26,648 nucleotides of DNA, from the UHGV virus genome UHGV-0191547; one strand, written 5' to 3'. Position numbers and translations under genes: made by a program. The DNA is from a virus. The notes beneath the pieces were generated by a model. It worked only from the letters and a program-made list of their open reading frames with translations, ran no database searches and was not told where the DNA came from. Positions 3,040 to 16,584 of this stretch are shown one piece after another; position 1 is the first letter of the stretch; each line of letters starts with the position of its first letter.

Positions 3040-3360
3040 TTATGCTATTTTTTCGTAAAGCACATTCATCTGGGTGCGAATCACTGTTAATATATTGATT
3101 GCTGCGTTCTTATCAATGCGTTTATTCGCTACTATTTTTGTTTTCCCATCAATAACAACCAGATCTGCGTGCAATACATGGTTGAAGTTGACAATGTAAT
3201 AATACTGTTTATCGCCAACATGTTGAACATATGCACCATTTAGATTTCCTTTATACCCACAATCACGCTCTGCGACACCGAAGTCAAATTCGCGGTTCAT
3301 CTTGCGATTATATGCTACTTGTTTATGTTCCCATTTTCTCATCCATTCATCGCGCTTCAT
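3040..3360 (-). CDS. Hypothetical protein, antisense cargo cassette A
   Basis: 106 aa ORF 9 nt downstream of the lipoprotein gene on the - strand, RBS AAGGGTGA; AT-rich by eye. Confidence 0.5.
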   Translation of the reverse strand: MKRDEWMRKWEHKQVAYNRKMNREFDFGVAERDCGYKGNLNGAYVQHVGDKQYYYIVNFNHVLHADLVVIDGKTKIVANKRIDKNAAINILTVIRTQMNVLYEKIA

Positions 3361-3369
3361 GTTTCACCC

Positions 3370-4029
3370 TTAATTCCAGTTGCAAGCGTTTTTTACTTTG
3401 TCGATGTGGTTATAAAGACCATCAATGTTAAACACTGCTTTCTCAATGTCGCCAGCTTCCGGCACTACTTCAATGATAAATTGTTTTTCGTTAACCAGAT
3501 TTTTAATCATTGGGATGGCTTTTTTGTCGTTCCATAATCCAAGAGCTTTATAGTTAGTTGACCGCCCCCATTCAGTGGCTACAGCTTTGTGATCGCCGAT
3601 CCGGTAGTTAATATAAGTAGCGTCCCCGGCGTCAGTTACACGGTGTGACCATGCTACGAACATTTTTGTTTTATTACCCTGGCAAGCAATTGTTAATACC
3701 GGTTTATTATTATCCTGTGCCTTCAGTGCCGGGAAGGCATCAAGACTTCCGCTAAAATGATCTGCTTTCACAAAAAGGAACACGTTTTTTGTGTCCTGCA
3801 TATCATCTTTTCTTTCGACCACAAGCCACTGTTTACCAGCTTTTTCTTTTGCTAACTGTGCCTCATATGCGGCTTGTTTTGCTTGTTGTTCCGCAAGCCA
3901 TTTAGCATTTTTCTCAGCCAATGCTTGTTGTTCTTGAGTGGTCACTATAGGCGCTTTTTCATTATCCTCATTGCAACCAACCAGACCCAATACCGCCGCA
4001 ATCATTGCCACTTTTGCTAACTGTTTCAT
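3370..4029 (-). CDS. Lipoprotein, antisense cargo cassette A
   Basis: 219 aa; N-terminus MKQLAKVAMIAAVLGLVGC is a signal peptide with lipobox L-V-G-C; Ala/Gln/Lys-rich predicted coiled segment after the lipidated Cys. Confidence 0.65.
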   Translation of the reverse strand: MKQLAKVAMIAAVLGLVGCNEDNEKAPIVTTQEQQALAEKNAKWLAEQQAKQAAYEAQLAKEKAGKQWLVVERKDDMQDTKNVFLFVKADHFSGSLDAFPALKAQDNNKPVLTIACQGNKTKMFVAWSHRVTDAGDATYINYRIGDHKAVATEWGRSTNYKALGLWNDKKAIPMIKNLVNEKQFIIEVVPEAGDIEKAVFNIDGLYNHIDKVKNACNWN

Positions 4030-4289: not shown

Positions 4290-6629
4290 ATGGCTACCAG
4301 TGTAGGTACAATTTATTACGAAGTTGATGCAAAAACTGGTCAACTTCTCGTTGCACAACGACAGGCAGACCAGGCCTTTGACCGTATAGAGCGCGGCGCA
4401 AAACAGGCTGACCGCCAGGTAAACACCCTGAAAACATCCATCAAGGCACTGACCAGGGTTATCCATTTGCTAATTGCTGCCGAGGCTGTGCGCCAATTTA
4501 TGGATATGGCGGAGCAAGCCAAAATGCTTCGCGTAAAAATCAAATTGCTTACAGGTGAAGCGGAGGCAACGGAACGGGTTTTCAACAGACTGAAAGAAAT
4601 ATCAAAAGAAACAGGCCAAAGCCTCAAGGATACTGGTGCCCTGTGGCAAGGTCTTGCTATATCGCTAAAAAACACATCCGCCACAGAAGGCCAGGTGCTC
4701 AACCTGGTCAGCACGCTGCAAAAACTTGGTAACTTGGGCGGCGTGTCTGCGGAACAACTATCAAACTCCATGCTTCAGTTCCGCCAGGCTATTGATGCTG
4801 GCGTGTTGCAGGCGGAAGAGTTCAACTCAATACGTGATAACACCCCAACAATCATACAGGAAATGGCCCGACAGATGGGGTTATCTATGGGGCAGTTCCG
4901 CGCCGAAATGCTGGACGGCAAGATCACGGCTGAAAGGATGCTCAACGCGATCCAGGCGGCTACGCAGGAAACAAACGAGAAGTTTGCACAGTTACCGCGC
5001 ACGTCCGGTATGGCTTTTAATGAGCTTAAAGTCGAGGTGATGGGACTTGTCGAACAACTTGATGATCTTTTCGGCATATCAGATGGCGTTGTGTCAGCTA
5101 TCGACTTAATAACTGGTGGCGTTGAGGGATTAGGTAAAGGCGCAAAATTCGCCGCAACCTGTTTCAATACACTAAAAACGGCTGGCAGTGAGTTTATCGA
5201 CATGTTTGATGATGTTGCTGTTAAAGCTGGTGAGGTGGCGGAAGAGATTATCAGGATGGTAACGCCAATCAAAGCGCTAATGGATGGCTACAAATGGATG
5301 AAGGAGATCATTGATAAACGCAAGAATGAGCTAAACAGCAACAACGAAAAGAAATTCGGCCCTACAGTCGGTAAGGTCATGACGTTTGCAAATGACATCA
5401 AAAATGCGACCGCCGCTTATGATGAGTTTATGCAGAAACAGGGTGAGGCTGATGACGGCAAGATCACCGGATTCGATCAGCCAGTTGGCAAGCCGAAAAA
5501 AGGGAAAAAAGACAAGAAATCTGAAGCTGATCGGCTTGGTGATGAAGGCATAAAAGTATCCGACCAGTACAACAAAGACGCCGCAGCTATGCGCAAAGCG
5601 TTAGAGAACGGCAAGGCCATTGATGCTGCATTCGCCCAGGGTAAAATCACTCTCCTTGAGTACCGCGCCGCGCAAAAAGGGATAGGTAAGGAACTGAAGG
5701 AAGAATTAGCGCAAATTCCGGTAGATGAATTGCGTGATAAATGGGCGCAAATAGTAAGCCCGATGGATCAGCTTAAAGGTGAGGTTGACCCTATCCAGCA
5801 GGTGCAGAATGAATGGGCCGTCCGTAAGCAAATGCTTATCGACCTGGGCGTTACTGAAGCGCAACAGAAACAGGAACTGTTAGCCTATGAGCAACAGATC
5901 CGTGATCTGAAGTGGGAACAGTGGCAGGCACAAAGCGATACAAACGGCCTTATCGGTGATTGCGTTAATGGCCTAAAAGGTGGTATGAGCAATGCACTTG
6001 TTGGCCTGTTAAATGGTACTCAATCATTGAGTGATGTTTTTGCTAACTTAGGCAGCAATATCCTCGGGAATATCGGTAACAGGCTTTCAGACATAGCTGC
6101 AAACTGGATAGCAGATCAGATCATGATGGAAACGCAAAGCAAAGCGACTCAGGCAAGTACCACGGCGGGCGCGGTAGCGGCGCAAGGCCAGATTGCTGCG
6201 GCGGCGGCCCCGGCGGCGGCGGCAACAGCGGCGTCAACTGGCGGCGCATGGGCGGCGGCTGGTTCTGCGGCACTCACTGCGATCATGTCGCTGGCTACGT
6301 CAATTTTCGGCGGCGGTCGCTTTAATGGTGGTAGCGTTATTGGTGGCAATATGTACCGCGTAGGGGAACACAACAGGCCGGAGCTATTCCAGACATCTAA
6401 CGGAAATCAATATATGATCCCAGGCGAGAATGGCAGGGTTATTCCTGGGCGTGATATTGGCGGTGGCGGCGGCATTAGTATGCCTGTCAATATCAACATT
6501 CAGACCACAAACGGATTTAGCGACGAAGACAGTCGCAGACTTGAGCAAACAATGGAACGTGTAGCAATGAAGATGATAACAAGGGAATCACAAAGACCTG
6601 GAGGAATATTGCAACCGCGCCGCAAATAA
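4290..6629 (+). CDS. Tail tape measure protein
   Basis: 779 aa, alpha-helical N-terminal two thirds, Ala/Gly-rich low-complexity tract (AAAAPAAAATAAS), located between chaperone and gpM homologue. Confidence 0.9.
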   Translation: MATSVGTIYYEVDAKTGQLLVAQRQADQAFDRIERGAKQADRQVNTLKTSIKALTRVIHLLIAAEAVRQFMDMAEQAKMLRVKIKLLTGEAEATERVFNRLKEISKETGQSLKDTGALWQGLAISLKNTSATEGQVLNLVSTLQKLGNLGGVSAEQLSNSMLQFRQAIDAGVLQAEEFNSIRDNTPTIIQEMARQMGLSMGQFRAEMLDGKITAERMLNAIQAATQETNEKFAQLPRTSGMAFNELKVEVMGLVEQLDDLFGISDGVVSAIDLITGGVEGLGKGAKFAATCFNTLKTAGSEFIDMFDDVAVKAGEVAEEIIRMVTPIKALMDGYKWMKEIIDKRKNELNSNNEKKFGPTVGKVMTFANDIKNATAAYDEFMQKQGEADDGKITGFDQPVGKPKKGKKDKKSEADRLGDEGIKVSDQYNKDAAAMRKALENGKAIDAAFAQGKITLLEYRAAQKGIGKELKEELAQIPVDELRDKWAQIVSPMDQLKGEVDPIQQVQNEWAVRKQMLIDLGVTEAQQKQELLAYEQQIRDLKWEQWQAQSDTNGLIGDCVNGLKGGMSNALVGLLNGTQSLSDVFANLGSNILGNIGNRLSDIAANWIADQIMMETQSKATQASTTAGAVAAQGQIAAAAAPAAAATAASTGGAWAAAGSAALTAIMSLATSIFGGGRFNGGSVIGGNMYRVGEHNRPELFQTSNGNQYMIPGENGRVIPGRDIGGGGGISMPVNINIQTTNGFSDEDSRRLEQTMERVAMKMITRESQRPGGILQPRRK

Positions 6630-6635
6630 ACGAAA

Positions 6636-6663
6636 CCCCGGTACAATGCCGGGGTTATCTTTT
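6636..6663. terminator. Rho-independent terminator after the tape-measure gene
   Basis: CCCCGG-tacaatg-CCGGGG hairpin followed by TTATCTTTT. Confidence 0.6.
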
Positions 6664-6838
6664 AGTTATTCTCAAAACTTGTATATCCTCTTTCAATTTT
6701 CCCGCCTCTTACACTTCTTGCAAATACTGCATCATTATGTTTGAAAAATGGTTCAGTATATGTGTCTCCTTTACTATCCATCCATTTCACGATCCAGGCT
6801 ATACGTTTTACATTGCTTTTATTTGCCTGGTTTTTCAT
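6662..6838 (-). CDS. Possible small protein (58 aa), third gene of cassette B
   Basis: Hand-translated - strand ORF MKNQANKSNVKRIAWIVKWMDSKGDTYTEPFFKHNDAVFARSVRGGKIERGYTSFENN with RBS GGAGGAAAATAAA before the ATG. Confidence 0.3.
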   Translation of the reverse strand: MKNQANKSNVKRIAWIVKWMDSKGDTYTEPFFKHNDAVFARSVRGGKIERGYTSFENN

Positions 6839-6956
6839 TTTATTTTCCTCCGCAAATTACAATCTTCCGTTTCTGGCTATATAGCTGCGAGAAAACATCA
6901 CCAACCAAATATTCCAGATCTCCCTCCAGGTGAATTTATCGTCCTCCATACCCACC

Positions 6957-7211
6957 TCACTTATGGCAACCGCGAACGCCAGACAATTCATTGAATTTAT
7001 GGTGTTCAACAATCACCCACTCTTTCAGATCCTGGCTATAGACTCGCCAGTCTAAATTGGCGCGGAAGGCGTAGCCGTAACCGTCTTTCAATTTTTTGGG
7101 TGACGCATTCTTGTTTAAAAACGCGTTCAAAAGTTCCTTTGCTTTTTTGACTACATGTCCCGGCGCGTTTTTCTGTGCTTTCAGATTTTTGTCAATCGCT
7201 ACCAGTTTCAT
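6957..7211 (-). CDS. Small protein with RelE/ParE-like toxin signature (candidate mRNA interferase)
   Basis: 84 aa; C-terminal KKLKDGYGYAFRANLDWRVYSQDLKEWVIVEHHKF resembles the RelE/ParE core pattern kLkG..g.yelRvgdyRviY....ilrigHRk recalled from memory. Confidence 0.4.
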   Translation of the reverse strand: MKLVAIDKNLKAQKNAPGHVVKKAKELLNAFLNKNASPKKLKDGYGYAFRANLDWRVYSQDLKEWVIVEHHKFNELSGVRGCHK

Positions 7212-7228
7212 AACTCACCCCATCATCC

Positions 7229-7384
7229 TTAGTTAAGTGCCTTCAGGAAGAAGTCCCGGTATTCATCTTCTTTTGCATTCATCATGAATTGACCGTATTT
7301 GAATGCGTCGTCGAAACCCTTAACGATTGCTATTTCCACTTGTTCGAATGCGTTGTTTAGCATTACCACTACATAGCGTTTCAT
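7229..7384 (-). CDS. Small protein (51 aa) upstream of the RelE/ParE-like gene; possible antitoxin partner
   Basis: Internal start MKRYVVVM chosen over the ORF-track start at 7459 because it has a strong RBS (GAAGGAGG, 6 nt spacing); the 7459 ATG lies inside the conserved promoter element. Confidence 0.4.
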   Translation of the reverse strand: MKRYVVVMLNNAFEQVEIAIVKGFDDAFKYGQFMMNAKEDEYRDFFLKALN

Positions 7385-7425
7385 TTTGGGCCTCCTTCGT
7401 TGGTACTGCTTTTCTTCTTGCTTTC

Positions 7426-7454
7426 TATATACATCTTGATGCGTGATATGTGAA
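7426..7454 (-). promoter_or_regulatory. Candidate sigma70 promoter for cassette B (TTCACA-N17-TATATA) with upstream CAAAATGG element
   Basis: - strand reads CAAAATGGC-TTCACA-17 nt-TATATA; 17 of 18 nt identical to the cassette A element at 4233-4250. Confidence 0.4.
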
Positions 7455-7553
7455 GCCATTTTGTAAACTAGCTATAATCATTGTGATGAAGATCTCATTT
7501 TTTGCGTAGAATCGCGTAAAAGTATATACAAAATGTAAATTATAGGGGGATTT

Positions 7554-7907
7554 ATGCCTGAAGTGTTCCGATGGACACCACAAAGAAGCTACAGCGTAAA
7601 CAGTGAGCCTAACGTGTCTGTCATTAAGCTGGGTGATGGGTATGAACAGCGCCAGACAAAAGGGATTAACCCTTTACTTGATAGCTACAGCCTGGTTTTT
7701 AAAGGCACAAGCGCCGGATGCGGTGACGCCGGAAACGTGGCGCTCCAAGTTGACGCATTTTTAAGGGCGCGTTGCGCGGTCGAGGCGTTTTACTGGACTC
7801 CATCAACTGACGGGGTGCAAAGGCTTTTTGTATGCAGAAAGTGGAGCATGACGAAAGACGGCCCGGTATGCACGCTAAACGCAACTTTTGAGCAAGTTGT
7901 CAATTAA
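7554..7907 (+). CDS. M: Minor tail protein M
   Basis: 117 aa; FRWTP...GDGYEQR and C-terminal ATFEQVVN match the lambda gpM pattern (recalled ...FSAEFEQVVN). Confidence 0.85.
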   Translation: MPEVFRWTPQRSYSVNSEPNVSVIKLGDGYEQRQTKGINPLLDSYSLVFKGTSAGCGDAGNVALQVDAFLRARCAVEAFYWTPSTDGVQRLFVCRKWSMTKDGPVCTLNATFEQVVN

Positions 7908-7920
7908 TGGAGGTGTCAAT

Positions 7921-8106
7921 ATGTATGCTATTTGTGTAGTGGACCGCACGGGCGCTTTTACATTGTTTGACGACTATGAAATCAACGATCTTACTGTAAA
8001 GGCTGATAATGGCGAGATCTGGTATCTTCATGATGTTGGTGACGGGTATGTCGGATGCAGATCGAGAGAGGGTAGGGAAGTTTTATTTTTACTTGATGGC
8101 GTATAA
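7921..8106 (+). CDS. Small hypothetical protein (61 aa) inserted between M and L in sense orientation
   Basis: Start MYAICVV with RBS GGAGGTG; followed directly by a strong hairpin terminator; lambda has no gene here. Confidence 0.4.
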   Translation: MYAICVVDRTGAFTLFDDYEINDLTVKADNGEIWYLHDVGDGYVGCRSREGREVLFLLDGV

Positions 8107-8111
8107 ACACG

Positions 8112-8140
8112 ACCCCGCGCGAAGCGGGGTTATTATTATT
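8112..8140. terminator. Rho-independent terminator (CCCCGC-gcgaa-GCGGGG then TTATTATTATT)
   Basis: Hairpin plus T-rich tail; 8112-8134 is the exact reverse complement of 16307-16329. Confidence 0.6.
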
Positions 8141-8252
8141 CCATTTCCATTAACGCTATATTTTCTGCTATCGTTTTCCAGTCCAGATCTACAGCATGAA
8201 CACCAAATACTATCAATCCCATTGCGATTAGTGCTAAAACTTCGATTTTCAT
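8136..8252 (-). CDS. Possible small hydrophobic peptide (38 aa), last gene of cassette C
   Basis: Hand-translated MKIEVLALIAMGLIVFGVHAVDLDWKTIAENIALMEME with GTGAGG RBS; one predicted hydrophobic helix. Confidence 0.25.
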   Translation of the reverse strand: MKIEVLALIAMGLIVFGVHAVDLDWKTIAENIALMEME

Positions 8253-8343
8253 AATCAACCTCACTTAATTAAGAAAGGCATAAACGATGGCAATCGCGCC
8301 AGCCACTACCAAAACATTTCGATCACTTCGTCTACTTTATTGA

Positions 8344-8547
8344 TTAAGGTAACTCCACTTCGTTAAATGTAACAAGCACCCCTTGATTTTCTTTATTTAT
8401 AATTATGAAGGCATTAATTGAAGGCAGACATCTTTCCACGCGGTAAACGTCACCAATATCTAAACTGTAATATTCTGTTAATTCTCTATTGTTCCCTTTA
8501 GCAAAACCCGTAAACCTAACCATTTTTTGACCGTCGTACTTTAACAT
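8344..8547 (-). CDS. Hypothetical protein (67 aa), cassette C
   Basis: - strand ORF with AGGA RBS, tightly packed with neighbours; AT-rich. Confidence 0.45.
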   Translation of the reverse strand: MLKYDGQKMVRFTGFAKGNNRELTEYYSLDIGDVYRVERCLPSINAFIIINKENQGVLVTFNEVELP

Positions 8548-8555
8548 ATACAGTC

Positions 8556-8804
8556 CTATAGGTTATCACGCAGATAATTAACGCCTTTGTCAGTGACGAA
8601 TGAGTGATTAACCTGGTTTTCATCCGTCATGATGATGAATGACTTTTCCTGTAGGTATTTCGCTTTTGGGTACAGCGTTAAACAGACCTGGTACAGTATC
8701 CCGCGCTCAATCAGCAAATCAATAAATTCGTGCTCATGATAACCGACGAGGCGGGCGGCTTGTTTCAACGTGTACACATAATCGCCGTGATTGCGCCGCC
8801 CCAT
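8556..8804 (-). CDS. Hypothetical protein (82 aa), cassette C; possible helix-turn-helix
   Basis: Segment YTLKQAARLVGYHEHEFIDLLIERGIL has a helix-turn-helix-like pattern; no family recognised. Confidence 0.45.
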   Translation of the reverse strand: MGRRNHGDYVYTLKQAARLVGYHEHEFIDLLIERGILYQVCLTLYPKAKYLQEKSFIIMTDENQVNHSFVTDKGVNYLRDNL

Positions 8805-8813
8805 GTTGCCGCC

Positions 8814-9161
8814 TTATTTATCGAATGCGCCCAGGTTATCTATGCAGAAGTCTTTCGCAGCTTTTTCGTATTCGCGTTTTGCTTGCGGATCGTCTGCCGG
8901 GAAACCTTTTGCGTGTATTTCACCAGGGCAAGACTGATCCATAGAATCAGCAAATTCAACATTGACGTTAAAGTTAATATCTTTCGGATTCATGTTTTCC
9001 ACCTCATCAATTATCTGCACCGGATTAGCGGCATATTTCACTGGATGGCCTAAACTACATTCAAGAATCCTTCCTTCTTCCAAAGCTGCCTCTTCGCTAT
9101 CAAATAATCCGAAACACTCCTTGCAACCACTTAACCACACATCAAGACTATATTTTTGCAT
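8814..9161 (-). CDS. Hypothetical Cys-containing acidic protein (115 aa), cassette C
   Basis: - strand ORF with GAGAGG RBS; CKEC...C...SCPGEIH cysteines suggest possible metal binding. Confidence 0.5.
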   Translation of the reverse strand: MQKYSLDVWLSGCKECFGLFDSEEAALEEGRILECSLGHPVKYAANPVQIIDEVENMNPKDINFNVNVEFADSMDQSCPGEIHAKGFPADDPQAKREYEKAAKDFCIDNLGAFDK

Positions 9162-9173
9162 TTCGTTAACCTC

Positions 9174-9329
9174 TCATTTGACAGGTTCGATTCTGTACCC
9201 CAAAACGCGTTCGTCTTCAGCGAGTAATAGCGCGTCAGTCAGTGCCTCGCCTTCGTCTTTATACAGAGCTACAGTCATTTCCCTGCCACCTGACAGGAAT
9301 ACCTTCAACCTCCACACCTTATCAGCCAT
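9174..9329 (-). CDS. Hypothetical small protein (51 aa from MADKVWRL), first gene of cassette C
   Basis: Internal start preferred (RBS GGAGGTG, 6 nt spacing); the ORF-track start at 9404 overlaps the predicted -35. Confidence 0.4.
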   Translation of the reverse strand: MADKVWRLKVFLSGGREMTVALYKDEGEALTDALLLAEDERVLGYRIEPVK

Positions 9330-9375
9330 CTCACACCTCCGCGCCATTTTGTTAACTGTGCTTCCGTTTGAGTAA

Positions 9376-9404
9376 AATATACATATTGTATAAACCGCGA
9401 TCAA
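9376..9404 (-). promoter_or_regulatory. Candidate sigma70 promoter for cassette C (TTGATC-N17-TATATT) with upstream CCAAAATGG element
   Basis: - strand reads CCAAAATGGA-TTGATC-17 nt-TATATT; same architecture as the cassette A and B elements. Confidence 0.35.
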
Positions 9405-9458
9405 TCCATTTTGGTATGATTTAGCGTGACGCAGATCACAAAATCAGAAGGTGAGAAA

Positions 9459-10163
9459 ATGCGCAATATACCTACAGAGATGATTATTGATTCCGTGGAC
9501 GCTGGTGTGGGCGCGGTGATTGACTTGTTCGAACTGGACTTGTCGCCCCTGGGTGGCGAGGTTATCCGCTTCCATTCCGGCGCGAATGGCTATTACGGCC
9601 CGGTTATCTGGAAGGGATTAACTTACAACAGCTACCCGATCGAGGCTACTGGCTTCGAAATGAAAAACGAGGGCGTTTATTCGCGGCCTCAAATGGTTGT
9701 AGCCAATATCGGCGGGCTAATCACAGGGATGAATAACGACTTCAACGACCTGCGAGGAATGAAGGTTACGCGCCGCCAGGTGGAAGTAAAATACCTGGAC
9801 GCCGTTAACTTCCCAAACGGCAATCCAGACGCAGATCCATCTATTGAGGCTGTATCTTTTTACGTCGTGGAGGCCATGAGCGAGGAAACAGCGGATCAGG
9901 TGCAATATGAGCTGTCAACGCCAATTGATGCTGATAAGGCCGTTATCCCTGGGCGCACCATCCTTGCTGACGTTTGCCAGTGGCAATACAGAGGCGACGG
10001 GTGTATGTACGCTGGCGGACCAGTAGCAAACGATAAAGACGAGCCGACAAGCGATCCTAAAGCCGACAGATGCAGCCACCGTCTAAGCGGTTGTCGTTTG
10101 CGTTTCCCGCGTCCAAATCCGTTACCGATTTCCTGTTTCCCTGGTTCCAGTAAGGTAGGTTAA
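9459..10163 (+). CDS. L: Minor tail protein L
   Basis: Start at MRNIPTEM (RBS AGGTGAG); VTRRQVEVKYLDAVNF and PGRTILADVCQWQYRGDGC match recalled lambda gpL blocks. Confidence 0.85.
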   Translation: MRNIPTEMIIDSVDAGVGAVIDLFELDLSPLGGEVIRFHSGANGYYGPVIWKGLTYNSYPIEATGFEMKNEGVYSRPQMVVANIGGLITGMNNDFNDLRGMKVTRRQVEVKYLDAVNFPNGNPDADPSIEAVSFYVVEAMSEETADQVQYELSTPIDADKAVIPGRTILADVCQWQYRGDGCMYAGGPVANDKDEPTSDPKADRCSHRLSGCRLRFPRPNPLPISCFPGSSKVG

Positions 10164-16335: not shown

Positions 16336-16584
16336 TTAGTAGTTAGCTACACAATTCGACGGGCTACCTATGCGGCGCATGTTGTGATCGAGTTCATGAC
16401 ACCATTGACCAGTATATGGCAGTTTTTCAGTGTCATATACAAGATGACCATTAGCATCATAGACGATTTCTTGTGGAATCACTCCGCTATTTGGCAGGTT
16501 ATGCAATGCAGCTTCTTTGTCAACAGCGCAACCAGTAAGAGCAACAGCCGCAGCGAATAAAACCACTTTGAACATGTTTTTCAT
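16336..16584 (-). CDS. Small lipoprotein (82 aa), antisense cassette D between J and the tail fibre
   Basis: MKNMFKVVLFAAAVALTGC signal peptide with lipobox A-L-T-G-C; single gene between two terminators. Confidence 0.6.
   Translation of the reverse strand: MKNMFKVVLFAAAVALTGCAVDKEAALHNLPNSGVIPQEIVYDANGHLVYDTEKLPYTGQWCHELDHNMRRIGSPSNCVANY

Follow-up and report, generated by a model that had tools for sequence, protein, structure and literature searches.

An antisense gene cassette with a stand-alone KilAC-domain protein between the tail genes M and L of mEp021-group coliphages

Introduction

In phage lambda the tail genes M and L are adjacent on the map, no genes of the kind described here lie between them, and lambda-type tails assemble regardless. 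The secondary immunity regions immI of P22 (arc-mnt-ant) and of P1 (c4-icd-ant) are located within late genes, and the KilAC domain is carried by P1 Ant and KilA. The KilAC domains tested so far act as effectors (PMC9043618; bioRxiv 10.1101/2024.01.05.574328). That of AriS blocks the SOS response on its own (PMC9043618), stand-alone CreP has a bacteriostatic effect and makes cells filamentous (bioRxiv 10.1101/2024.01.05.574328), and growth is inhibited by the KilA domain of Phi11 Gp07 (PMC5944126); with CreP and Phi11 Gp07 the outcome is arrested cell division. A precedent for antisense nesting of genes as an on/off device is the "noncontiguous operon" (PMC11087260).

The phages closest to the one analysed here are temperate coliphages of the mEp021 group (mEpimmI), which reportedly equal the lambdoid phages in frequency among E. 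coli isolates from the human gut (PMC11893012). A KilAC-like protein is among the manually defined core genes of these phages, and UV induction fails in most of them (PMC11893012).

Location and gene content of the cassette

The window, i.e. the whole analysed stretch of 26,648 nucleotides of virus genome UHGV-0191547, is the tail module of an mEp021-group temperate coliphage and shows 83-94% identity to MagusPhagus, mEp010/013/044/515/554 and mEp021. A putative late gene regulator Q is annotated in the mEp021 record. The cassette is flanked by genes for the tail proteins M and L (Pfam E 1.5e-29 and 1.4e-71, respectively). The five minus-strand open reading frames (A to E) which a first-pass annotation had placed between them were confirmed and, together with a sense gene (F), are located as follows:

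9174-9329, minus strand: gene A, 51-aa acidic soluble protein (phrog_29559), ATG preceded by GGAGG
8814-9161, minus strand: gene B, 115-aa two-module protein (phrog_38567), very acidic (net charge about -12)
8556-8804, minus strand: gene C, 82-aa stand-alone KilAC/ANT ("antirepressor") domain protein (phrog_5689)
8344-8547, minus strand: gene D, 67-aa optional cargo with a weak phrog_14327 match, in 11 of 47 cassette versions
8136-8252, minus strand: gene E, 38-aa predicted single-pass membrane peptide, optional, with the conserved motif GVHAxDxDW
7921-8106, plus strand: sense gene F, 61 aa (phrog_3249), downstream of M, sharing a terminator with the cassette

The gaps A-B, B-C, C-D and D-E measure 12, 9, 8 and 91 nt, and each of the five minus-strand frames is preceded by a Shine-Dalgarno-like sequence. 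All five are under purifying selection (dN/dS 0.21-0.24 for A, 0.23 for B, 0.11 for C, and 0.19 for both D and E, compared to 0.08 for tail protein M).

Conservation was assessed in 47 cassette versions, comprising the window and 46 related loci. The gene order M> F> hairpin C< B< A< L> is found across practically all of them, with D, E and a further gene (f33) as optional members, and no version with an empty M-L junction was encountered within the family. A, B and C are kept in all or nearly all 47 versions, while D is found in about 11 and E in 25 to 35 of them. The conserved self-contained unit thus consists of the three genes A-B-C, with D and E as optional 3' cargo; the five-gene operon proposed earlier holds for the co-occurrence of A-B-C but not for D and E.

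The block has been annotated before in published genomes, as gp71-74 of mEp021. The same cassette, at the same M-L position and with the same orientation and promoter, is present in mEp021 (gp71-gp74), mEp010/013/044/515/554 and MagusPhagus (PMC11893012). Compared to its equivalents in this group, C is 91-99% and A 84-92% identical, whereas B shares just 66-74% identity, since the N-domain of B in the window belongs to a different allele. In mEp021 itself a different gene is located between C and B, and D is absent from most isolates.

With a GC content of 36-45% the cassette differs from its flanks (48-56%), and the GC skew is inverted within it. Neither Pfam nor PHROGs revealed similarity of the cassette proteins to families of tail proteins or chaperones. 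A, B, C and D as well as the sense gene F belong to PHROG families of unknown function, scans against Pfam, NCBIfam and PADLOC returned nothing for A, B, D and E, and none of the six proteins A to F matched a PADLOC-DB v2 defence model at E up to 1. The proposal of a non-structural unit inside the tail module is borne out by a conserved promoter and terminator of its own, by the low GC content and by the lack of tail-protein similarity, and the block is, as judged from these sequence features, a non-structural unit with transcription of its own that lies antisense within the tail operon.

In several respects the cassette resembles morons (PMC3594210). In silico it has its own promoter (invariant and sigma-70-like) and terminator (a conserved hairpin), its GC content is low and deviant, and it sits between two genes, M and L, which are neighbours in lambda. 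In contrast to typical morons, only D and E are sporadic, yet the A-B-C core occurs in nearly all 47 versions and hence in essentially every family member. Presence in nearly every member is atypical of a classical moron. The antisense nesting is like that of noncontiguous operons (PMC11087260), and would make expression of the cassette and of the late operon mutually exclusive.

The immI regions of P22 and P1 offer an analogy only: in each case a temperate phage has small regulators and an "antirepressor"-type protein encoded among its structural genes. Unlike these regions, the cassette contains neither an RHH (Arc/Mnt-like) protein nor an identified antisense RNA gene, and C lacks the rest of Ant.

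Promoter, palindrome and terminator

Three putative control elements were assigned:

9376-9404, minus strand: predicted sigma-70-type promoter (-35 TTGATC at 9404-9399, 17-nt spacer, -10 TATATT at 9381-9376)
9373-9390, no strand assigned: quasi-palindrome TACAATATGTATATT(T/G)TA, overlapping the -10
8111-8131, no strand assigned: bidirectional intrinsic-terminator hairpin CCCCGC-loop-GCGGGG (-19.5 kcal/mol, fold z -3.5)

The promoter TTGATC-N17-TATATT named in the first-pass annotation was recovered upstream of A on the minus strand (9404-9376), by a promoter scan and by its conservation in relatives. By itself such a match is not above chance, since 6 sites were found where 6.3 were expected. 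Among 36 distinct sequences from upstream of the cassette in related phages, however, nearly all keep both hexamers unchanged, and the promoter stretch is better conserved than the downstream coding DNA.

In mEp021-type alleles the quasi-palindrome is perfect (8+2+8). It can be read either as a candidate operator or as the trace of two -10 boxes placed back to back; the first 40 kb of mEp021, immunity region included, contain no copy of it. Control of the promoter by LexA or CI was considered and rejected, as the palindrome is not CTGT-N8-ACAG and is not repeated in those 40 kb. No repressor-type operator is common to the promoter and the mEp021 immunity region, which is compatible with expression in the repressed prophage but is no proof of it. 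A 15/18 copy of the palindrome is located upstream of M (7527-7544); when this copy was considered as the promoter of a TMP-M cassette, no conserved minus-strand -10 was seen across loci.

A terminator score was obtained on both strands for the G+C hairpin (8111-8131), in line with the suggestion that the cassette and the sense gene at 7921-8106 share one. Of the 46 cassette versions in which F was called, 42 have the hairpin directly behind the F stop codon; the stem is constant and the loop variable. The hairpin is predicted to end both the cassette transcript and the sense M-F transcript, unless the latter is antiterminated.

The KilAC-domain protein C

In the first-pass annotation none of the proteins matched a recognised family. 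This does not apply to C, which scores 28.3 bits against the Pfam ANT/KilAC profile PF03374 (cut-off 25.3, E 2.3e-6, profile positions 23-105 of 108). C was also annotated as a KilAC antirepressor by PGAP and in mEp021 (gp71), and in tblastn searches it matched the C-terminal KilAC domains of antirepressors of Cronobacter, Hafnia and Stx phages with 30-35% identity. By these matches C is the only recognisable protein of the cassette, a stand-alone KilAC/ANT domain. It is also the most conserved cassette gene, with 88-99% identity in all related loci and 7 clusters at 90% identity.

A KilAC domain as in C is found in CreP of A. baylyi, AriS of Listeria phi10403S, Phi11 Gp07 and P1 KilA/Ant. C is phage-borne and, like CreP, a single-domain protein; its segments AARLVG and TDKG correspond to the AKxLxL-like and TxKG motifs that CreP is reported to have. 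With 82 aa, C is shorter than the characterised KilAC proteins (103 aa or more), has no N-terminal Bro-N, AntA or KilA-N partner domain and shows low similarity to the characterised members. Unlike these, it is predicted to be co-transcribed with two orphan proteins. The roles of KilAC domains are known from Listeria, Acinetobacter and Staphylococcus proteins with little sequence likeness to C.

AlphaFold2 modelled C with low confidence (mean pLDDT 62). A Foldseek search of the PDB returned MerR/RacA/Xis-like winged helix-turn-helix proteins as best hits, none of them significant (E 0.18-2), while a sequence search of the PDB with C gave no match, hence no solved structure of a KilAC domain. 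The helix-turn-helix-like segment that had been noticed in one of the proteins is present in C. The accompanying assignment of a regulator needs correction: C is a stand-alone KilAC/ANT domain, which is effector-like where it has been tested elsewhere, rather than a classical operator-binding regulator. By analogy with those proteins, C is likely the effector of the cassette. It could instead be a DNA-binding autoregulator, because the KilAC match is just 3 bits over the threshold, the structural model is of low confidence and the MerR/Xis-like folds are non-significant.

Genes A and B

B is a two-module protein, the parts of which are encoded as follows:

9012-9161, minus strand: N-domain of B (aa 1-50), hypervariable, a beta-hairpin/helix/strand mini-domain
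8814-8993, minus strand: C-module of B (aa 57-115), nearly invariant, with the motifs DSMDQxCPGE and FCIDNLGAFDK and the invariant residues C78 and C106

B is present in all 47 cassette versions and belongs to an orphan family, with 14 matches among 1.84 billion representative proteins in an exhaustive profile search. Three long repeat proteins (P0071, P0074 and P0076) were dismissed as B homologs, the matches being to low-complexity regions or short motifs. The dN/dS value is 0.09 for aa 70-115 and about 0.22 for the variable parts, which are diversified without overall positive selection. An SD-like AGGTGGA lies 6 nt ahead of the ATG of Met57 (8993-8991) in 45 of 47 versions, and translation may possibly also start at this internal position. 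The C-module is found in addition as a stand-alone gene in unrelated viral contigs of about 120 kb, in three of which (L049, L051 and L052) a gene for an E-like peptide follows it. The neighbours in these contigs belong only to PHROGs of unknown function, and megablast gave no match to the phage collection.

The cysteine cluster described earlier for one of the proteins lies in B and is not conserved: most homologs have other residues in the places of C13, C16 and C35. A Zn-binding cluster was ruled out on the same grounds, as the candidate N-terminal ligands are not conserved. The conserved Cys and His residues (C78 and C106, which are invariant, and the nearly invariant H83) are all located in the C-module.

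A was detected in 46 of 47 related loci by tblastn and in 45 of 47 cassette versions as an ORF family. It occurs in three allele types with identities of 41-100%. Its GenBank label "transporter" is unsupported; A has no hydrophobic segment. Aligned with hhalign, A and the N-domain of B gave a probability of 74.7% (E 2.6e-5, 44 columns), and by this profile alignment A is a paralog of the hypervariable N-domain of B. This was the sole exception in an all-pair test, in which a relation of A to X3, X1, f18 and other small proteins (the two cassettes as paralogs) was rejected with at most 3.5% for each pair. The association between the alleles of A and of the B N-domain is weak (r = 0.29) and resembles the background association with M. 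The alleles thus assort almost freely, which lends no support to a tight A-B or A-C specificity pair.

The N-domain of B was modelled by AlphaFold2 with a pLDDT of about 90. It resembles the predicted beta-beta-alpha-beta mini-domain of approximately 50 residues in small DUF7336-type proteins of, for example, Salmonella phage Jersey, Bacillus phage Spock and Escherichia phage 2725-N35. This likeness is at fold level only (E about 1e-2), with no Pfam sequence match, and A can be likened to DUF7336 by its paralogy with the N-domain of B. No literature on DUF7336 was found.

Genes E and F and the neighbouring cassette

E had been described as a predicted membrane peptide, which is in line with a hydrophobic stretch of 17 residues with a mean Kyte-Doolittle hydropathy of 2.55. 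It was found in 25 cassette versions as an ORF family and in about 35 loci by tblastn. The sense gene F lies outside the cassette and is present in 46 of 47 versions (all but L036) with a dN/dS of 0.14. An adjacent antisense cassette contains a 51-aa gene followed by a ParE-like toxin gene (X3/ParE-like pair).

Possible function of the cassette

The explanation that we favour, tentatively, is an autonomous moron-type antisense operon with a KilAC effector and with A and B as its modulators, silenced by late transcription. For the timing of expression, the target of C and the roles of A and B we infer the following. The conserved sigma-70 promoter would drive A-B-C(-D-E) as long as the late genes are not transcribed, which would be the case in the lysogen and possibly in early infection. 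The KilAC protein C would then bind a host or phage regulatory protein; going by KilAC proteins elsewhere, candidate targets are the RecA/SOS pathway, the cell-division machinery or a phage repressor. A and B would tune or restrain C, with the invariant module of B providing a constant interface, and A and the N-domain of B, which vary, an adaptable one. In lytic growth, convergent late transcription, presumed to be Q-antiterminated, would read through the common hairpin and silence the operon. The poor UV inducibility of most mEpimmI phages (PMC11893012) is compatible with a KilAC effector.

The operon is present in essentially every mEpimmI member examined, and the group is common in gut E. 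coli. If C damps SOS or arrests division, it could help to explain why most of these prophages are not induced by UV, and how prophages influence the physiology of carrier strains. The combination of hypervariable and invariant modules in B and the conserved antisense nesting of both this cassette and the ParE-like one in the tail operon would represent a compact, testable form of gene switching coupled to the life cycle. If a phenotype is absent, the cassette is one more uncharacterised moron.

A defence or anti-defence function is a possible, live rival, but not the best-supported reading. The first-pass annotation had proposed a superinfection-exclusion, defence or anti-defence system, to which nothing specific ties the cassette. 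As a prophage defence or exclusion system, a lysogen would make A to E, the variable domains of A and B would sense an incoming phage, and C and/or E would block or abort the infection; this we regard as unlikely. As with many prophage defence morons (PMC11087260), the cassette has a promoter of its own and runs antisense to late genes, the N-domains of A and B are hypervariable, and CreP, a stand-alone KilAC protein, arrests growth as a toxin with a part in immunity. The membrane peptide E also speaks for this reading, but it is absent from 12 to 22 of the 47 relatives. The ParE-like toxin in the neighbouring cassette also fits, whereas no cassette protein has a PADLOC match, A-B-C is near-universal rather than swapped like defence cargo, and with a dN/dS of about 0.22 the variable parts are not positively selected overall. 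Moreover, superinfection exclusion in the mEpimmI group has been assigned experimentally to Lpp lipoproteins encoded elsewhere in the genome, downstream of J (PMC11893012), and the window contains a homolog of this gene (16336-16584).

Quite unlikely is an anti-defence or host-takeover function early in infection or upon induction, with A and B as small acidic inhibitors of host proteins such as restriction, CRISPR, RecBCD or proteases. In its favour are the strong negative charge of B (-12), the presence of the B C-module and an E-like peptide in the unrelated phages of about 120 kb, and the shuffling of alleles, which would suit an arms race. The fold is generic, however, and its matches are non-significant; none of the proteins is linked to a known anti-defence family, the cassette and the immunity region have no repressor-type operator in common, and a place and orientation inside the late operon would be odd for early genes.

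Toxin-antitoxin-like stabilisation of the prophage, in which B and/or A would neutralise C as a KilAC growth inhibitor in parallel to the X3/ParE-like pair, is improbable. The order of small upstream genes followed by the most conserved gene is reminiscent of an antitoxin followed by its toxin, as in the sister cassette with its 51-aa gene and ParE-like toxin, and KilAC-only proteins can be toxic (bioRxiv 10.1101/2024.01.05.574328; PMC5944126). Against this, the putative antitoxins vary widely and do not co-vary with the nearly invariant C, A shows no similarity to X3 or any antitoxin family (hhalign, Pfam), and no TA family was found for A to E in Pfam, NCBIfam and PADLOC.

We likewise give little credence to A-B-C as a three-part sensor-effector, in which the invariant C would arrest growth or the SOS response unless restrained by the invariant C-module of B, and with DUF7336-like receptors or decoys. 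The hypervariable DUF7336-like domains of A and B would be interchangeable and face proteins of competing phages or host defences, and through the antisense placement in the late operon the phage's lytic programme would disarm the system. The stand-alone C-module and E-like peptide of the phages of about 120 kb would then be an ancestral two-gene kernel.

That the genes encode tail-assembly or structural accessory proteins placed on the other strand by chance is barely credible: nothing but the location between M and L and the family-wide presence speaks for it, while the cassette lies on the opposite strand with its own promoter and terminator, has no tail or chaperone family similarity and is missing between the adjacent M and L of lambda, and in mEp021 virion or tail structural labels, which probably mark MS-detected proteins, are attached to gp69 and gp75 but not to gp70-74.

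Occurrence in prophages

Prophage copies of the cassette were found in 35 of 5,426 complete E. coli genomes. An aEPEC-named strain is listed among the hosts of mEpimmI prophages (PMC11893012), and the carriers of the cassette encountered in our searches include an O157:H7 strain and STEC-named strains.

Genomic context and distribution

A lambda-like siphovirus tail module is encoded on the + strand of the 26.6-kb window, and five - strand genes (A to E) are located between its genes M and L; K, I and J of the module are also on the + strand. Nucleotides 6600-9500 matched seven phages by megablast, namely MagusPhagus (94.5% identity to the window) and six E. coli phages from Mexico, mEp010, 013, 044, 515, 554 and 021 (83-87%). 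All seven are members of the "mEpimmI" group, temperate coliphages that are Nus-dependent and non-lambdoid; the manually defined core genes of this group include a "phage antirepressor protein KilAC-like" (PMC11893012). The same - strand block is present at the M-L junction of all seven records, where its products are annotated as hypothetical proteins, with a "putative antirepressor" in addition in mEp021 (gp71-74). The cassette is carried by prophages in 35 of 5,426 complete E. coli genomes. Its genes have already appeared, uncharacterised, in GenBank and in a 2025 paper, and morons with a KilAC protein are an element type known before.

For comparison, 47 cassette versions were used: besides the window itself, 43 come from IMG/VR contigs and three from phage or E. 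coli records. A further contig, L049, was treated separately.

Features of the M-L region, with presence among the cassette versions and identity to the window copy
4290-6629, + strand, tape-measure protein
7554-7907, + strand, M (Pfam Phage_min_tail, E 1.5e-29)
7921-8106, + strand, gene F (61 aa, phrog_3249, pI 4.2)
8111-8131, both strands, terminator hairpin
8136-8252, - strand, gene E; 25 versions (ORF family), about 35 loci (tblastn)
8344-8547, - strand, gene D; 11/47
8556-8804, - strand, gene C; 47/47, 88-99%
8814-9161, - strand, gene B; 47/47, 58-99%
9174-9329, - strand, gene A; 46/47 related loci (tblastn), 45/47 versions (ORF family), 41-100%
9404-9376, - strand, promoter TTGATC-N17-TATATT
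9426-10163, + strand, L (Pfam Phage_tail_L, E 1.4e-71)

All five open reading frames described in the first-pass annotation were recovered at the coordinates given there, preceded by Shine-Dalgarno-like sequences and separated by 12, 9, 8 and 91 nt. Pairwise Nei-Gojobori estimates of dN/dS over the relatives (A 0.21-0.24, B 0.23, C 0.11, D 0.19 and E 0.19; M 0.08) identify all of them as genuine coding genes. The GC content is 36-45% in the block versus 48-56% in the tape-measure, L and K genes, and the GC skew changes sign in the block, as expected for - strand genes of different origin. The proposed promoter was located as well and is supported by conservation: a promoter scan was overall at chance level (6 sites versus 6.3 expected), but both hexamers, together with some 60 nt of surrounding sequence, are nearly invariant across 36 distinct upstream regions of relatives and better conserved than the downstream coding DNA. 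The terminator described as common to the cassette and F was called on both strands (-19.5 kcal/mol, z = -3.5 in RNA folding). An F reading frame was called in 46 versions, and 42 of these have the hairpin after the F stop codon, its stem invariant and its loops variable. F itself is under purifying selection (dN/dS 0.14) and lies directly 3' of M in 46/47 versions; we know of no equivalent between M and L in lambda.

The conserved unit is A-B-C, not all five genes. Conserved co-occurrence of the genes, a point that the first-pass annotation put up for checking, holds for A-B-C (45-47/47) and fails for D (11/47) and E (25-35), as judged from the presence counts and the commonest architecture (M> F> hairpin C< B< A< L>). 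A further gene between B and C (f33), absent from the window, is found in 5/47 versions. D has only a weak PHROG match, to a function-unknown family.

Proteins encoded in the cassette

The first-pass annotation recognised no family for any of the products. C (82 aa), however, matches Pfam ANT/KilAC PF03374 (28.3 bits, cut-off 25.3, profile positions 23-105 of 108). By tblastn it is also related, at 30-35% identity, to larger antirepressors encoded by Cronobacter, Hafnia and Stx phages, in each case to their C-terminal domains. Its AlphaFold2 model is weak (pLDDT 62) and begins with a strand-helix-turn-helix; the best PDB matches, MerR/RacA/excisionase-type winged helices, are non-significant. 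The helix-turn-helix-like segment noticed earlier is therefore real, a predicted element of C with at most putative DNA binding.

B (115 aa, net charge about -12) is an orphan: a search of 5.8 billion proteins gave 60 clusters, each of them from E. coli or from ~53-kb phage contigs, and only 14 matches emerged when 1.84 billion representatives were searched exhaustively with a profile. In the alignment, residues 1-56 are hypervariable (seven allele types, pN 0.27), while residues 70-115 are almost invariant (dN/dS 0.09). For the N-domain, AlphaFold2 confidently predicts a beta-hairpin, a helix and a strand (pLDDT about 90); beyond it come a disordered linker and then a C-terminal helix. A cysteine cluster did not hold up, since the N-terminal cysteines vary among homologs; C78 and C106 are conserved. 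Met57 is invariant and, in 45/47 homologs of otherwise divergent alleles, AGGTGGA stands 6 nt before its codon (8991-9005, - strand). Furthermore, synonymous sites are unusually conserved in codons 53-100. This pattern suggests an internal translation start producing the 59-aa C-terminal part of B (C-module) alone, or another embedded signal.

Consistent with such a start, the C-module occurs as a stand-alone gene of 60-64 aa in three unrelated ~120-kb viral contigs, directly followed by an E-like membrane peptide of 45-47 aa (…LEVLAL…GVHAxDxDW…). These pairs are located at 3962-4292 in L049, 6001-6349 in L051 and 5401-5749 in L052, with a spacing of 10 nt in the latter two. Their neighbours are solely PHROGs of unknown function, and no DNA match to these contigs was found in the phage collection. 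E of the window is, as described before, a predicted single-pass membrane peptide. The arrangement points to a mobile two-gene kernel of C-module and E-like peptide.

A (51 aa), confined to these phages, aligns with the B N-domain over 44 columns (hhalign probability 74.7%, E 2.6e-5), while no other pair of small proteins from both antisense cassettes exceeded 3.5% probability. From its two modules and the stand-alone pair, B has the appearance of an A-type domain fused to the mobile kernel. Alleles of A and the B N-domain recombine almost freely (r = 0.29, equal to the value with unrelated M). A is acidic and soluble. RefSeq E. coli homologs of A are named "transporter" by NCBI; lacking both a hydrophobic segment and a domain match, the 51-aa protein does not support this name, which appears to be a propagated annotation error.

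Control of expression

A quasi-palindrome, TACAATATGTATATT(G/T)TA, encloses the -10 box of the cassette promoter. Perfect in mEp021-type alleles, it may be an operator bound by a cassette protein or simply the result of two -10 boxes that overlap. It was not found again in the first 40 kb of mEp021, repressor region included, so there is no sign of CI control. A promoter-like site (TTGTTA-N18-TAAAAT; 9349-9378, + strand) lies back-to-back with the cassette promoter and points toward L, and a 15/18 copy of the palindrome (0.04 expected by chance) is found at 7527-7544, just upstream of the M ribosome-binding site. The tail genes 3' of each antisense cassette may use these sites as restart promoters or for shared control.

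An upstream ATG is conserved in the motif AACAAAATGGC (9330-9347, - strand). In most alleles it adds six in-frame codons (MARRCE) to A, while in L005, L021, L022, L029 and L048 it appears to open an upstream reading frame of about seven codons, whose stop overlaps the A start (ATGA), a hint of coupled translation. At 7455-7469, ahead of the first gene in the other antisense cassette, stands a 15-mer that agrees with this motif at 14/15 positions.

Since a putative late gene regulator Q is annotated in the mEp021 record, late transcripts would be expected to pass the shared hairpin and continue through the cassette in antisense orientation. If the nested antisense "noncontiguous operons" of staphylococcal phages (PMC11087260) are a guide, cassette and late expression would be mutually exclusive, and late transcription of the phage itself would turn the cassette off.

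Possible functions

The best-supported interpretation is an autonomous accessory operon with a stand-alone KilAC protein as its constant payload, alongside two paralogous orphan proteins. Among the database records and papers covered here, we found no earlier description of the three-gene core versus optional cargo, the A/B paralogy, the hypervariable and invariant modules of B with their probable internal start, the stand-alone C-module and E pair in unrelated phages, or the highly conserved promoter.

With regard to function, a KilAC effector acting on SOS, cell division or the repressor, with A and B as modulators, is put at slightly below even chances. Published work on other KilAC proteins shows the domain in an effector role. 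In Listeria, that of AriS suppresses the SOS response by itself, probably via RecA (PMC9043618), while CreP, which consists of a single KilAC domain, is bacteriostatic and leads to filamentation (bioRxiv 10.1101/2024.01.05.574328); TDKG and AARLVG in C resemble the TxKG and AKxLxL motifs of CreP. The CreP preprint further refers to reports of cell-division inhibition by P1 KilA and Phi11 Gp07 (bioRxiv 10.1101/2024.01.05.574328; PMC5944126). Most mEpimmI phages are not UV-inducible (PMC11893012), as a constitutive KilAC SOS inhibitor would bring about, a connection that is suggestive but unproven.

Defence or superinfection exclusion, favoured in the first-pass annotation, is unlikely: no cassette protein has a PADLOC match, A-B-C is found in nearly every member, and exclusion in this phage group was assigned experimentally to Lpp lipoproteins (PMC11893012). 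Anti-defence or host takeover is rated somewhat lower still, and stabilisation of the toxin-antitoxin kind is doubtful at about one chance in ten. A structural role is very improbable.

Other antisense units

A second antisense cassette (6662-7459, - strand) is located between the tape-measure gene and M, and a single lipoprotein gene just after J.

7229-7384, - strand, 51-aa gene, first of the second cassette (phrog_29810)
6957-7211, - strand, ParE-like toxin (Pfam PF24732, 32.1 bits, cut-off 24.4)
6662-6838, - strand, optional gene of the second cassette
16336-16584, - strand, 82-aa predicted lipoprotein with LTGC lipobox

The first two genes of the second cassette are present in 45-46/47 versions and look like a toxin-antitoxin pair; a homolog of the 6957-7211 product is named 'ParE family toxin-like protein' by PGAP. 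In a third antisense unit (3040-4029, - strand), upstream of the tape-measure gene, the gene for a predicted lipoprotein of 219 aa precedes a 106-aa reading frame without family match; the lipoprotein has an LVGC lipobox and a VasI domain of type VI secretion (PF11319, E 2.3e-14). Lpp-type superinfection exclusion was shown experimentally for mEp021 and mEp010 (PMC11893012), and, by its position, the gene at 16336-16584 is probably the corresponding exclusion gene.
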